Shown: positions 8,545-49,170 of the stretch, in pieces
Numbering within the stretch: position 1 is the stretch's first letter
Layout of the letters: each line of letters begins with the position of its first letter
DNA from: Escherichia coli
GTDB lineage: Bacteria > Pseudomonadota > Gammaproteobacteria > Enterobacterales > Enterobacteriaceae
Direction: 5' to 3' (one strand)
Length of the DNA stretch: 64,000 nt
Assembly (NCBI RefSeq): GCF_036507355.1
Contig: NZ_AP027877.1
Translations under genes and position numbers: made by a program
Notes under the pieces: generated by a model
Told to the model about the DNA's origin: nothing
The model's input: only the letters and a program-made list of their open reading frames with translations
The model's database searches: none

Positions 8545-8877
8545 TTACGTATTGTCTTTCACCGTCTGGCTTGTGCCATTGGCTTTAACGGAGGCAATTC
8601 CGGTTTCACGAGATTGCGCGGTGGCATACATCTGGCTGGAGCCGATAATTTGATGATTGGCGGCTTTCAGATTGAAATAGAATTTGCCGTTGCTTGCCGT
8701 TTTTTTCTCATAGCGTTCTTCTTGCGGGCTGTTGCTACGCACCGACGCGATGCCCTTTTCCGCAGAGGCTTTTGAGGTATACAGCTCGCTGGTGAGGATA
8801 GTCTCACCATTGCCCGCTTTTAGCACAAACCGGAACTGATTATCACTGCTCTTACTGAGTTCAAACCAACCAGCCAT
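8545..8877 (-). CDS. yegP: YegP (UPF0339/DUF1508 tandem-domain protein)
   Basis: ORF with internal tandem duplication (…KASAEKGIASVRSN… / …AQSRETGIASVKAN…); start at ATG MAGWFEL with upstream RBS. Confidence 0.85.
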   Translation of the reverse strand: MAGWFELSKSSDNQFRFVLKAGNGETILTSELYTSKASAEKGIASVRSNSPQEERYEKKTASNGKFYFNLKAANHQIIGSSQMYATAQSRETGIASVKANGTSQTVKDNT

Positions 8878-44199: not shown

Positions 44200-45620
44200 A
44201 TCGGGTACGGGCGCGAGGTAACATATATGGACGCTCCCGGAATGCAATGCTTTCTTCAGTTATGTAATAAAACGGGTAGGTGCAGCCATATATCCGGTTT
44301 CTGATGGGATTTTTATCCCGAACCATGATGAAATCCGCCAGGCAGGTACCAATCATCCTCTACGGGCTAACTTGCCCTTGTTACCTCTCGGTGTATCCTG
44401 CCTGCGGTCTTACCTGTTTTGCCATCTTCTGAAGTCACCTGCACCTACCAGGACGTTAACTTTTTTTCAGCACCTCGTCAGATTGACTGACCTTGTGTCA
44501 GGCGAGCTGCCGAGGTTGATATTCAGTATTGTGTGACAACATTGACCACATGCTCCTCGCTGTTTTTGCCGCCATGGCGACAACAGCTACATTGTAGTGC
44601 TTCCGCTCAAGGAGTCCCTGAAGCCAGGAATTCTCCTCAACCGCGCCGTTTCGGTTGACCCAGGCGGTAAGTGCGCGTGCGCCGTGAACCAGCAGGTATC
44701 GGAAATATCCATCTCCACGTTTGCTGATCCCTCCCAGTTGCTGTTTCCCGCCGCTGGAATGTTCCTTTGGTGTCAGCCCCAGCCATGAAGCGAACTGCTT
44801 TGCGGTACTGAATTGTCGGGCATTACCCACTGCTGCTACCACATAAGTGGCCGTTAGCATGCCAACCCCCGGGATTTTGGCCATTCTCTGGCAGGCTTCC
44901 TGCGTTCTATACCAGGAGGCCAGAGCTTCTTCTACCTGTTTAACTTGTTCTTCAAGTTCCCGGATATGTTTAGACTGTCTGTAGATGCTGGTTCTGACAA
45001 AGGGAGATAAACCATTTTCGCTATCCTCCAGAATGGCTGGCAGCTCACGGGTTAAATGGCTTTGTCCGGCCGCAATCGTAATACCAAACTCAGCAAGTGT
45101 GGCTCTTAAACTATTGGCACAGGCAATCCGCTCACGGATAAGTATTCCCCGTTCAGTGTGTAACGCTAAAACGGCCTGCTGCTCTTCGGTTTTTATCTGA
45201 ACAAAACGCATATTCGGACGGGTTACCGCTTCGCAGATTGCTTCAGCATCTGCTGCATCCGTCTTGTTCGTTTTCACATAAGGCTTCACATACTGCGGAG
45301 GTATGAGTTTTACCTCATGACCATAGCGGGTGAATAATCGCGCAAAATAATGACTGGATGAGCAGGCTTCCATGCCAATCAGACAAGGTTCCAGTTGAAT
45401 CACAAACTGAACAAACTTAGCCCGGGTGAGCTTTTTACGCAAAATAGTATGGCCTTCATGATCGACACCATGAAGCTGAAAAACGTTCTTTGCCAGGTCG
45501 ATACCAAGAGTTGATACTTTCATGTGGACGCTCCTAATTTTTCAGGACGTATTGCAACGATCCAGTCTGGTACTTTGATACCGTAAAATCTGGAGCGTCC
45601 ATCTCATTATCCCTTCCCTG
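44200..45620 (-). mobile_element. IS110-family (IS1111-like) insertion sequence; ends approximate
   Basis: Single DEDD-type transposase ORF, no obvious long terminal IRs; 11-bp inverted copies of ATGGACGCTCC at 44227-44237 and 45588-45598; long 3' non-coding region. Confidence 0.6.
44498..45523 (-). CDS. IS110-family transposase/recombinase (DEDD type)
   Basis: 341-aa ORF MKVSTLGIDLAKNVFQLHG...MEACSSSHYFAR...DAADAEAICEA...RPNMRFVQIKT..., pattern typical of IS110/IS1111 transposases. Confidence 0.85.
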   Translation of the reverse strand: MKVSTLGIDLAKNVFQLHGVDHEGHTILRKKLTRAKFVQFVIQLEPCLIGMEACSSSHYFARLFTRYGHEVKLIPPQYVKPYVKTNKTDAADAEAICEAVTRPNMRFVQIKTEEQQAVLALHTERGILIRERIACANSLRATLAEFGITIAAGQSHLTRELPAILEDSENGLSPFVRTSIYRQSKHIRELEEQVKQVEEALASWYRTQEACQRMAKIPGVGMLTATYVVAAVGNARQFSTAKQFASWLGLTPKEHSSGGKQQLGGISKRGDGYFRYLLVHGARALTAWVNRNGAVEENSWLQGLLERKHYNVAVVAMAAKTARSMWSMLSHNTEYQPRQLA

Positions 45621-45788: not shown

Positions 45789-47372
45789 TCACACCTCGTA
45801 CTCCATCTCGCCATCCTTACGCAGCGGTATAATCTGCACCTTCTGCACGCGATGGCTTTCTACCTGCAACGTTTTAAGCAAATAATCCCCCACCTGAACT
45901 TCTTCGCCAGGTTTTGGAATACGCTGCAAATACTCCATCAACAGCCCGGCAATGGTGTGATATTCACGTTTTTCATCCAGCGGCAGCGGCACATATTGCA
46001 CCAGATCCTCCAGCGGCATATGACCATTCGCCGTCCAGGAACCGTCCGCATTCTTCTGAATATCATGTCGGGCGTCGATCTCTTCCACTTCGTTCGGTAA
46101 GTTACCGGCAATGGTTTCAGTGACGTCACTTAATGTCACAATCCCTTCCACCGAGCCAAACTCATCCACCACAAAAGCAAAGTGCGTGCGGGCATTACGG
46201 AACTGCTCCAGGGCAGGTAACAACGGCAAGGTTTCCGGGAACACCAGCGGCTGGCGAATCAACACCCGCAGGTTGAGCGGTTCGCCGCGCAGTGATTGTT
46301 GTAACAGGTCGATAACGTGAACAACACCGAGCAAATCTTCTGCGTCATCACCGTCGGTAACCACCAGCCGCGTATGCTGATTTCGCTCCAGCAACTGGCG
46401 GATTTCTTCTTCCGGCGCGTTGAGATCGATATGCTCAATATCGTGGCGCGACGTCATAATGCTGCTGACGGTACGCTGGTTAAGATTAAGTACCCGCTCA
46501 ATCATCCGCCGTTCCTGCGGATTAAAGATCTGCTGGTTACCATGATCCACCAGCATGGACGCGGTTTCGGCGTCCAGTTCCGCATCTTCTTTTTGCCCGC
46601 TAAGCAGGCGCATTACCGCTTCGGTAGTCCGCTGGCGCAGCGTCTGGTTAGCGGAAAGAAAACGTCGCCGGTTAAAGATAGCCAACTGATTGAGCGCCTC
46701 GATCATCACCGAGAAACCAATGGCAGCGTACAGGTAGCCTTTCGGAATGACGAAGCCGAAACCTTCTGCCACCAGGCTAAAGCCAATCATCAACAGGAAG
46801 CTTAAGCAGAGAATAACGATGGTCGGGTGACTGTTAACAAATTGCGTTAACGGCTTGCTGGCCATCAACATCAGGCTGATAGCGATAACCACGGCGGCCA
46901 TCATGACCAGTAAATGGTCGACCATCCCGACGGCGGTAATCACTGAGTCGAGTGAGAAGATGGCGTCCAGTACCACAATTTGTGTCACCACCCCCCAGAA
47001 CTTCGCACCTTTGCGTTGTGTGGGATTATTGCTGTCTTTCCCTTCCAGCCGTTCGTTCAGCTCCATCGTGGCTTTGAACAACAGGAAGAAACCACCAAAC
47101 AGCATGATTAAGTCGCGGGCGCTAAAGGTAAACGAGCGGAAGCTGAACAGCGGTTGAGTCAGGGTGACCAGCCAGGAGATTGACGCCAGCAGTAACAGGC
47201 GCATTAACATCGCCAGCAGCAGCCCGGTAACCCGTGCGCGGTCGCGCTGCTTCGGCGGTAGTTTTTCGGCGAGGATGGCAATAAAGACCAGGTTATCAAT
47301 GCCGAGGACCAGTTCGATCACAATCAGCGTGATTAACCCGGCCCAGATAGACGGATCGGCAATCCATTCCAT
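45789..47372 (-). CDS. yegH: TerC-family membrane protein with CBS and CorC/HlyC domains (YegH)
   Basis: Start set at [13 protein letters not shown] (527 aa); integral membrane N-terminus plus CBS pair. Confidence 0.85.
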
Positions 47373-47840
47373 AGTAAGTACAAAACCTATTCGTTGTATG
47401 ACAAATGTCACAATTCGATCATGGATAAATCGGGGCAAAAATGCAATGTTGCAGCACTATTTATCTCATATTATTTGAGGACAATAACCTCACATTATCC
47501 CTGAATTAAAAGTGGTAATAATAAAACATTATTTAAGAAATATCGCATGTGGAGACGCAATATTAAATATTGTCAACCTAAAGAAACTCCTAAAAACCAT
47601 ATTGAATGACACTTAATATAATTCTTAAAAATAGCCAATTGCCGAATTGTTACCTTGCCTGCTATTCCGTTAGCTGTAACACTTCCTCCTGCATTATTGG
47701 AGAGCCAATATTCAATTACCATAATGTCACCTTATATTCGGAAGTTAATTTCCGCAATAACCCTTTCTCATCAACGACTGTATGTTGAGAGGGTTTTAAA
47801 AATTAAGCTAAATCAGTGTATTGGTAGCTAAAAAGCCAGG

Positions 47841-47852
47841 GGCGGTAGCGTG
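47841..47852 (+). promoter_or_regulatory. ops element (GGCGGTAGCGTG) within JUMPstart in the wza leader
   Basis: Exact match to the RfaH-recruiting ops consensus GGCGGTAGnnTG about 180 bp upstream of wza. Confidence 0.75.
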
Positions 47853-48030
47853 TCTGGATGCCTGAAAGACCAGTCTGAATTATTCTGTCAATAGCCTGCG
47901 GATGAAATCAATTTTTTTAGGACTGATGCCAGTTAAATTTTTATTCAATTAACTGCAAGGTAAATGTGCATGGCGACATTGCTATTAATAGTGCACAGGA
48001 TAATTACTCTGCCAAAGTGATAAATAAACA

Positions 48031-49170
48031 ATGATGAAATCCAAAATGAAATTGATGCCATTATTGGTGTCAGTAACCTTGATAAGCGGTTGCACAGTAC
48101 TTCCGGGCAGCAATATGTCGACGATGGGCAAAGACGTCATCAAACAGCAGGACGCTGATTTCGATCTCGACAAAATGGTGAATGTTTATCCGTTGACCCC
48201 GCGCCTGATTGATCAATTACGTCCACGACCCAACGTAGCGCGCCCCAATATGACGCTGGAAAGTGAGATCGCGAATTACCAGTATCGCGTCGGGCCGGGC
48301 GACGTTCTGAATGTCACCGTCTGGGATCACCCGGAACTCACCACGCCAGCCGGTCAGTACCGCAGCTCCAGCGACACCGGCAACTGGGTACAGCCTGACG
48401 GCACTATGTTTTACCCGTATATCGGCAAGGTTCACGTAGTCGGGAAAACGCTCGCTGAAATCCGCAGTGATATTACCGGGCGCTTAGCGACGTACATCGC
48501 TGACCCGCAAGTGGACGTTAATATCGCCGCCTTCCGCTCACAAAAGGCCTATATCTCCGGACAGGTGAATAAATCCGGTCAACAGGCGATCACCAACGTA
48601 CCACTGACCATTCTCGACGCCATCAACGCCGCAGGTGGCCTGACCGACACCGCTGACTGGCGCAACGTGGTGTTAACACACAATGGTCGTGAAGAACGCA
48701 TTTCTTTGCAGGCGCTGATGCAAAACGGCGACCTCAATCAGAACCGACTGCTTTATCCCGGCGATATTCTCTACGTGCCGCGTAATGATGATCTGAAAGT
48801 GTTTGTGATGGGGGAAGTGAAGAAACAGAGCACCCTGAAAATGGACTTTAGCGGCATGACCCTGACCGAAGCCCTGGGCAATGCTGAAGGCATCGACATG
48901 ACCACCTCCAACGCCAGCGGCATCTTTGTCATTCGTCCGCTGAAAGGCGAGGGCGGGCGTAACGGCAAGATTGCCAATATCTACCAGCTGGATATGTCCG
49001 ATGCCACGTCGCTGGTGATGGCGACAGAATTCCGCCTGCAACCTTATGACGTGGTGTATGTCACCACCGCCCCGGTTTCCCGCTGGAACCGTCTGATCAA
49101 TCAGTTGCTGCCAACTATTAGCGGTGTCCGTTACATGACGGATACAGCCAGCGACATTCATAACTGGTAA
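48031..49170 (+). CDS. wza: outer-membrane polysaccharide export lipoprotein Wza
   Basis: 379-aa ORF with lipobox LISGC. Confidence 0.9.

Follow-up and report, generated by a model that had tools for sequence, protein, structure and literature searches.

Which of the short motifs upstream of wza is the RcsAB box of the E. coli colanic acid operon, and what is to be made of the others that are conserved beside it? The question concerns positions 47440-48030 of the window (the whole 64,000-nt stretch of DNA that was analysed), a span that falls within the 655-bp intergenic region between yegH and wza (47376-48030). Very probably, this span holds the canonical promoter of the E. coli colanic-acid (cps/wca) operon together with its 5' leader, including the published wza RcsAB box, here called box C, and a predicted transcription start site (TSS) at about 47690. 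In other words, the control region is an ordinary one that is already described for E. coli, with one box assignment corrected. The correction concerns which 14-mer is the published RcsAB box, and its importance lies mainly in annotation hygiene. Two features appear mildly new: an architecture of three RcsAB-like boxes (A, C, and B, in order toward wza) in which box B is the most conserved, and a constraint on the late part of the leader.

The wza locus and its genomic context

The intergenic region is bounded by two divergent genes.

45789-47375, minus strand: yegH, annotated as a TerC family protein in RefSeq (open reading frame and annotation)
48031-49170, plus strand: wza, the first gene of the operon (full-length NCBIfam match to Wza, 729 bits)

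Downstream of wza, NCBIfam matches place wzb, wzc, and wcaA through cpsB on the plus strand. Wzb (329 bits) and Wzc (1513 bits) were matched over their full length, and the matches of Wza, Wzb, and Wzc are all to equivalogs. Full-length matches were also found for WcaA, WcaB, WcaC, WcaE, Gmd, Fcl, WcaI, and CpsB. The window holds over 16 kb of the operon, and the distal genes lie beyond it. The span had been described in an initial annotation as the leader of the colanic acid (wza) operon, and this description is borne out by Wza, Wzb, and Wzc, by the gene order, and by a JUMPstart element in front of wza.

The gene order yegH / wza-wzb-wzc-wcaA and onward is the same in K-12, and in the wza promoter of K-12 MG1655 the three boxes, the core promoter block, and the JUMPstart element are sequence-identical to those of the window. 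The window differs from K-12 by scattered single-nucleotide changes in the spacers (98.4% identity), none of which falls in an element, and by an IS110-family insertion beyond yegH. The colanic acid control region of this strain is thus intact and K-12-identical in its elements for Rcs-activated initiation and RfaH-dependent elongation. The MG1655-identical elements and the full-length genes from wza through cpsB, with the distal genes outside the window, weakly suggest that the operon is functional. A 901-bp query centred on the finding was matched at 98-99.9% identity in 4839 of 5426 complete E. coli genomes, and yegH and wza were annotated as the flanking genes in all E. coli genomes that it matched; the same identity range holds for the yegH-wza intergenic region of 4818 E. 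coli genomes. The IS110-family transposase gene occupies 44498-45523 on the minus strand (356 bits), between asmA and yegH; the insertion is missing in K-12 C600 and is present at the same site in strain G4/9, the closest genome.

The RefSeq record of MG1655 has no regulatory features annotated in the yegH-wza region. What RefSeq/PGAP does annotate there, in many E. coli genomes, is a minus-strand 'hypothetical protein' of 49 aa (47573-47722). Its frame is intact in 3 of 75 orthologous loci, and the call is almost certainly spurious; it overlaps boxes C and B and the core promoter. Further blocks, of moderate to strong conservation, occur at 47398-47468, a short way upstream of where the divergent yegH begins; AAATGCAATGT at 47439-49 is one of them. 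These are presumably the promoter or the 5' UTR of yegH; an Rfam search returned no riboswitch at 47398-47468, although yegH is a TerC-family gene.

RcsAB-like boxes upstream of the promoter

The TSS and the RcsAB box of wza were reportedly mapped by Stout in 1996 and by Wehland and Bernhard in 2000. Both papers are in the reference list of a compilation of known RcsAB boxes (Fang et al. 2015, Table S1; PMC4381331), in which the E. coli/Shigella wza box is given as TAAAGAAACTCCTA, and the identity of box C rests on this secondary compilation. The 14-mer occurs once in the window, on the plus strand at 47579-47592, and an identical copy is present in MG1655 at complement(2137682..2137695). The initial annotation had put the RcsAB box on the minus strand at 47614-47627, and the reverse complement of that segment is, as it had stated, TAAGAATTATATTA. 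The published box lies 35 bp upstream of this motif (start to start), so the reference site falls elsewhere, which is the outcome that the initial annotation had itself named as refuting its assignment. In other words, the annotated motif turned out to be real and conserved, but it is not the published wza box. In a full-text literature search, the 14-mer of the initial annotation was not printed in the papers covered, and the main texts held nothing relevant on any of three candidate 14-mers; the published box came from the supplementary table. The elements upstream of the TSS are as follows.

47531-47548, plus strand: conserved block over box A, TTTAAGAAATATCGCA (75-locus footprint)
47534-47547, plus strand: box A, RcsAB-like, TAAGAAATATCGCA (6 of 6 invariant consensus positions)
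47571-47576, plus strand: invariant TGTCAA hexamer just upstream of box C (>90% identity, 75 loci)
47579-47592, plus strand: box C, the published wza RcsAB box (14 of 14 positions with Table S1 of PMC4381331)
47579-47596, plus strand: conserved block of box C and its A-tract (75-locus footprint)
47614-47627, plus strand: box B, TAATATAATTCTTA (TAAGAATTATATTA on the minus strand), a conserved RcsAB-like element that is not the published box
47655-47660, plus strand: predicted -35 hexamer TTGCCT (in CTTGCCTG, nearly invariant across 75 loci)
47675-47683, plus strand: predicted extended -10 element TGtAACACT (in the conserved block GTTAGCTGYAACA; TGcAACAAT in most genera)

Relative to the predicted TSS, the boxes are centred at about -150 (A), -105 (C), and -70 (B). 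Against the consensus TaAGaatatTCctA, box B matches 10 of 14 positions and 5 of the 6 invariant ones (T1, A3, G4, T10, C11, A14) in either orientation. Neither strand has the full invariant set, the plus strand lacking G4 and the minus strand C11. A match of this quality is by itself within chance expectation. About thirty 14-mers in the window agree with the consensus at 10 or more of 14 positions, and when the intergenic region was shuffled with its dinucleotides preserved, 17% of the shuffles contained a site as strong as box B by weight matrix. From these numbers alone, the AT-rich motif at 47614-47627 could be a chance consensus match devoid of function.

Evidence of another kind comes from conservation. 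Orthologous wza loci, 80 in all, were collected from other Enterobacteriaceae (Citrobacter, Salmonella, Enterobacter, Lelliottia, Kosakonia, Phytobacter, Atlantibacter, Franconibacter, Cedecea, Buttiauxella, Trabulsiella, and others). For 75 sequences (the window and 74 orthologous loci) with an anchorable ops (operon polarity suppressor) element, the 480 nt upstream of ops were aligned. Conservation across these 75 loci was found only in discrete blocks, and the spacers between the blocks are randomised in sequence and fixed in length. Box B forms the most conserved upstream block; with its A-tract (47612-47630) it reads CTTAATATAATTCTTAAAAA in the window and TTAATATTAATCTTAAAA in most genera. 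In box C, the right half TCCTAAAA is invariant across genera. At the left half, Franconibacter and Atlantibacter have TGAGG, and Citrobacter and Salmonella have a degenerate TCAAT. Box A is the sole intergenic 14-mer with all six invariant consensus positions and does not vary among eight Escherichia sequences. In that set, which includes one divergent E. coli as well as E. whittamii, 92 of the 95 variable intergenic columns fell outside the defined elements and only 3 fell within their 189 bp (P = 9e-11). The three boxes, the -35 and -10 elements, and ops were free of variable columns in the eight sequences.

The three boxes also stand out by weight matrix. With a matrix built from the 13 other published boxes, the wza box being left out (leave-one-out), they were the top three intergenic sites (B 9.95, A 9.10, and C 8.12 bits), the next best scoring 5.9 bits. 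Three such sites within 94 bp were seen in 0 of 2000 shuffles. Of 73 loci, 75% score 8 bits or more at the aligned position of box A, 62% at that of box C, and 90% at that of box B; for null windows in the same sequences the figure is 1%. Box B scored 11.5 bits in most genera and kept a perfect TCTTA half-site in 90% of loci. Spacing was maintained as well: 34-35 bp from C to B in 58 of 63 loci, and 30-31 bp from B to the -35 hexamer in 67 of 70.

Box B is therefore judged to be real because of its conservation, and the comparative evidence marks it as a genuine, strongly constrained RcsAB-like element, the most conserved of the three. A functionless match is extremely improbable on the same evidence. 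Some 70 loci, drawn from more than 15 genera, carry the box in near-invariant form between randomised spacers, it stays at a fixed distance from box C and from the -35 hexamer, and it shows no polymorphism within Escherichia. Conservation has, in effect, already refuted the chance reading.

If box B is real, might it be the RcsAB box of the wza promoter after all? On the minus strand its left half, TAAGAAT, is perfect, its leave-one-out score is the highest of the intergenic region, no upstream block is better conserved, and a centre near -70 is typical for a class I activator. However, the published box is the other 14-mer, and the right half, when read on the minus strand, has AT in place of the invariant TC. 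The plus strand aligns better. There, box B runs TCTTA and then AAAAA, and the published boxes of wza (TCCTA+AAAA), rcsA (TCCGA+AAAA), and yjbE (TCCTA+AAA) end in a similar way. Since this half-site with an A-tract is common to the three, the plus reading fits known boxes better, and the minus-strand reading probably has the wrong orientation. It is thus very unlikely that TAAGAATTATATTA is the one RcsAB box of this promoter. Box B is absent from published box compilations.

A candidate auxiliary site and the wza operator

What does box B bind? Structural work on RcsB gives the half-sites TN(G/A)GA and TC(T/C)NA, and an RcsB box of the form TN(G/A)GA-N4-TC(T/C)NA (PMC7913699). According to a review, one half of the box is conserved and presumably bound by RcsB, and the sequence of the other half depends on the partner (PMC5651002). 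Boxes A, C, and B each have exactly one canonical RcsB-type half-site (TA[AG]GA or TC[CT]TA), and unlike the RcsB homodimer box none of the three E. coli boxes has both. All three score far lower than the other published boxes (8-10 bits against 12-17). The single half-sites would be consistent with dependence on RcsA rather than on RcsB alone. We lean, with modest confidence, toward box B as a putative auxiliary site for RcsAB or RcsB in the promoter-proximal position, at about -70.

A comparison with rcsA offers a precedent of a kind. The E. coli rcsA promoter contains TAATATAATTCCGT 33 bp upstream of its published box TAAGGATTATCCGA, and this sequence and wza box B have the 12-mer TTAATATAATTC in common. 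The rcsA sequence also overlaps the footprint of YdaT at the rcsA promoter, which is stated to cover 'box1', one of the two boxes ('box1' and 'box2') of the RcsAB operator there (PMC11879457). Like the wza operator, then, the rcsA operator has two Rcs-like elements 33-35 bp apart, one being the published 14-bp box with its A-tract and the other carrying TTAATATAATTC. The two operators differ in that the order of the elements relative to the promoter is reversed in rcsA, where the B-like site reaches only 4.7 bits, and in that wza has box A as a third element. By this analysis, rcsA may serve as a precedent for a two-box Rcs operator with a B-type element. The yjbE promoter has no second site at 34 bp. 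A general rule of a second box at 34 bp is not claimed, as rcsA (33 bp) speaks for it and yjbE against it.

The conservation of box B, and perhaps of box A, could instead have a reason unrelated to Rcs. The segment might be recognised by another regulator, might nucleate H-NS/StpA or bind IHF, or might act as an A-tract bend that positions box-C-bound RcsAB relative to RNA polymerase. An A5 tract follows each of boxes B and C, the 35 bp between their centres correspond to a non-integral number of helical turns, and box B is without the G4 that the structural RcsB motif requires. In its minus-strand reading, GCGATATTTC, box A may loosely resemble the AT-rich high-affinity motif of H-NS. In uropathogenic CFT073, the wza promoter is covered by H-NS-StpA and silenced (PMC9765446). 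Against such explanations stand the perfect RcsB-type TCTTA that box B keeps in nine-tenths of the loci, its 11.5 bits in most genera, the recurrence of its 12-mer at the RcsAB 'box1' of rcsA, and the very low likelihood that three Rcs-like sites cluster by chance. A non-Rcs reason is considered rather unlikely, and an auxiliary Rcs site is the preferred reading of box B.

A bolder proposal can be put forward tentatively, and with some doubt. Across the Enterobacteriaceae, the wza operator would comprise three phased Rcs-type boxes (at about -150, -105, and -70), of which box B is the most constrained and is required for activation, and the leader from ops to the ATG would be separately constrained, beyond the level of coding sequence. 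The three-box footprint and the late-leader constraint would then sharpen models of long-range activation of capsule promoters by RcsAB.

Other Rcs-like sites were noted in passing. Enterobacter and Lelliottia have a perfect palindrome of the RcsB-homodimer type, TGAGATTTCTCTTA, about 420 nt upstream of ops at the yegH end (loci L028, L031, L033, L035, L045, and others; aligned to window positions 47420-47433). Kosakonia and Phytobacter carry TAAGA(A/T)AAATCGCA on the opposite strand at the equivalent place, and the E. coli equivalent is degenerate. The strongest RcsB/RcsAB-like site of the whole window is TGAGGATAGTCTCA at 8793-8806 on the plus strand (about 14 bits), within a 123-aa open reading frame that has no NCBIfam match and adjoins baeR.

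Core promoter, ops element, and leader

The core promoter was assigned from conservation and is likewise a prediction. A conserved block at 47648-47690, CTTGCCTG-N10-TTAGCTGTAACACT, would hold the -35 and the extended -10 with a 17-bp spacer between them. On this assignment, transcription would start at about 47689-47692 and the leader would be some 340 nt long. A scan with a generic sigma-70 consensus gave a single match, at 47698-47725; it lies in unconserved sequence, is below shuffle expectation, and was rejected. The leader carries the following elements.

47814-47852, plus strand: JUMPstart element (Rfam RF01707)
47841-47852, plus strand: ops, GGCGGTAGCGTG, the RfaH loading site (exact match)
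47879-47905 and 47914-47936, plus strand: late-leader conserved blocks (mostly 80-99% identity, 75 loci)
47994-48030, plus strand: conserved 37 nt before the wza start, CTGCCAAAGTGATAAATAA[AT]CAATG

JUMPstart/ops is a known RfaH-recruitment element (Rfam RF01707; Hobbs and Reeves 1994). Here the Rfam covariance model was matched over its full length (positions 1-38 of 38) with 57.3 bits and E = 6.3e-12, the gathering score being 35. Apart from JUMPstart, an Rfam scan of 46500-49000 with a cut-off of E ≤ 1 returned a single hit, a chance match to a miRNA. The exact ops sequence reported in the initial annotation was confirmed: it occurs only once in the window, within JUMPstart. A 12-mer with at most one mismatch to ops appeared in 30% of shuffles. 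The ops core GGCGGTAG lies on the non-template strand, as RfaH requires (the plus strand being the coding strand of wza), in the leader before the first gene of the operon, and ops starts 190 nt upstream of the wza ATG. Of the 80 orthologous wza loci, 75 carry GGCGGTAGC, at a distance of 186-199 nt (mostly 189-190) from the start codon.

The wza ops of CFT073 has the identical 12-mer at -190 from wza on the non-template strand (PMC9765446, Data set S2), and a ChIP signal of RfaH was detected there in an hns stpA double deletion (PMC9765446). The ops elements of rfaQ and wzx in CFT073 also have the same 12-mer as the window, where it belongs to the leader of a polysaccharide operon. The window's wza ops differs in its distance to the first start codon, 190 nt as against 40-71 nt for wzx, kps, and rfa, and its ops-to-wza leader is unusually conserved.

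These elements suggest the following course of events, in which RcsAB activation and RfaH loading are taken from the literature, and identity, conservation, spacing, and statistics from this analysis. The RcsA-RcsB~P heterodimer would bind the upstream operator at the published box C and activate a weak sigma-70 promoter (-35 TTGCCT, extended -10 TGtAACACT, TSS about 47690), which would otherwise be silenced by H-NS-StpA (PMC9765446). Box B would be a second element of the same operator, with boxes C and A upstream of it at fixed spacing, and would most likely bind RcsAB or RcsB as an auxiliary site; it is the functions of boxes A and B that we infer. About 150 nt into the transcript, RNA polymerase would expose ops on the non-template strand. 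RfaH would load there and, along the whole length of the long operon, counteract pausing, termination by Rho, and the polarity that H-NS imposes. It may also aid the recruitment of ribosomes to wza, an activity of RfaH that is summarised in PMC9765446. No canonical Shine-Dalgarno sequence precedes wza; only GUGAU is found, 9 nt upstream of the ATG, and this would be consistent with RfaH-assisted recruitment.

The two parts of the leader are conserved to different degrees. The early leader (the first ~120 nt of the predicted transcript) is unconserved, with 30 variable columns in 123 bp among the eight Escherichia sequences, and the leader from ops to the ATG (47853-48030) has 4 in 178 bp (Fisher P = 2e-9). 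This late part is more conserved than the adjacent coding sequence and contains blocks with more than 90% identity across genera. What maintains it? RNA structure was rejected as the cause: RNAalifold gave 11 pairs, of which 0 were compensatory, at -5.5 kcal/mol, and the z-score of the minimum free energy of the single sequence was 0.24. A leader-peptide uORF starting from the ATG at 47927 was rejected too, as this codon is ATT or ATA in several genera. Within the leader, ops positions 47841-47848 (GGCGGUAG) are complementary to an invariant CUCUGCC (48006-48012) about 20 nt before the wza start, through 7 pairs and one bulge. Both sides of this pairing are nearly invariant; few partner variants were seen and none was compensated, which gives no support for the importance of the helix. 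The TGTCAA hexamer found just upstream of box C (47571-47576) recurs in the late leader at 47887-47892, within the conserved block TCTGTCAATAG.
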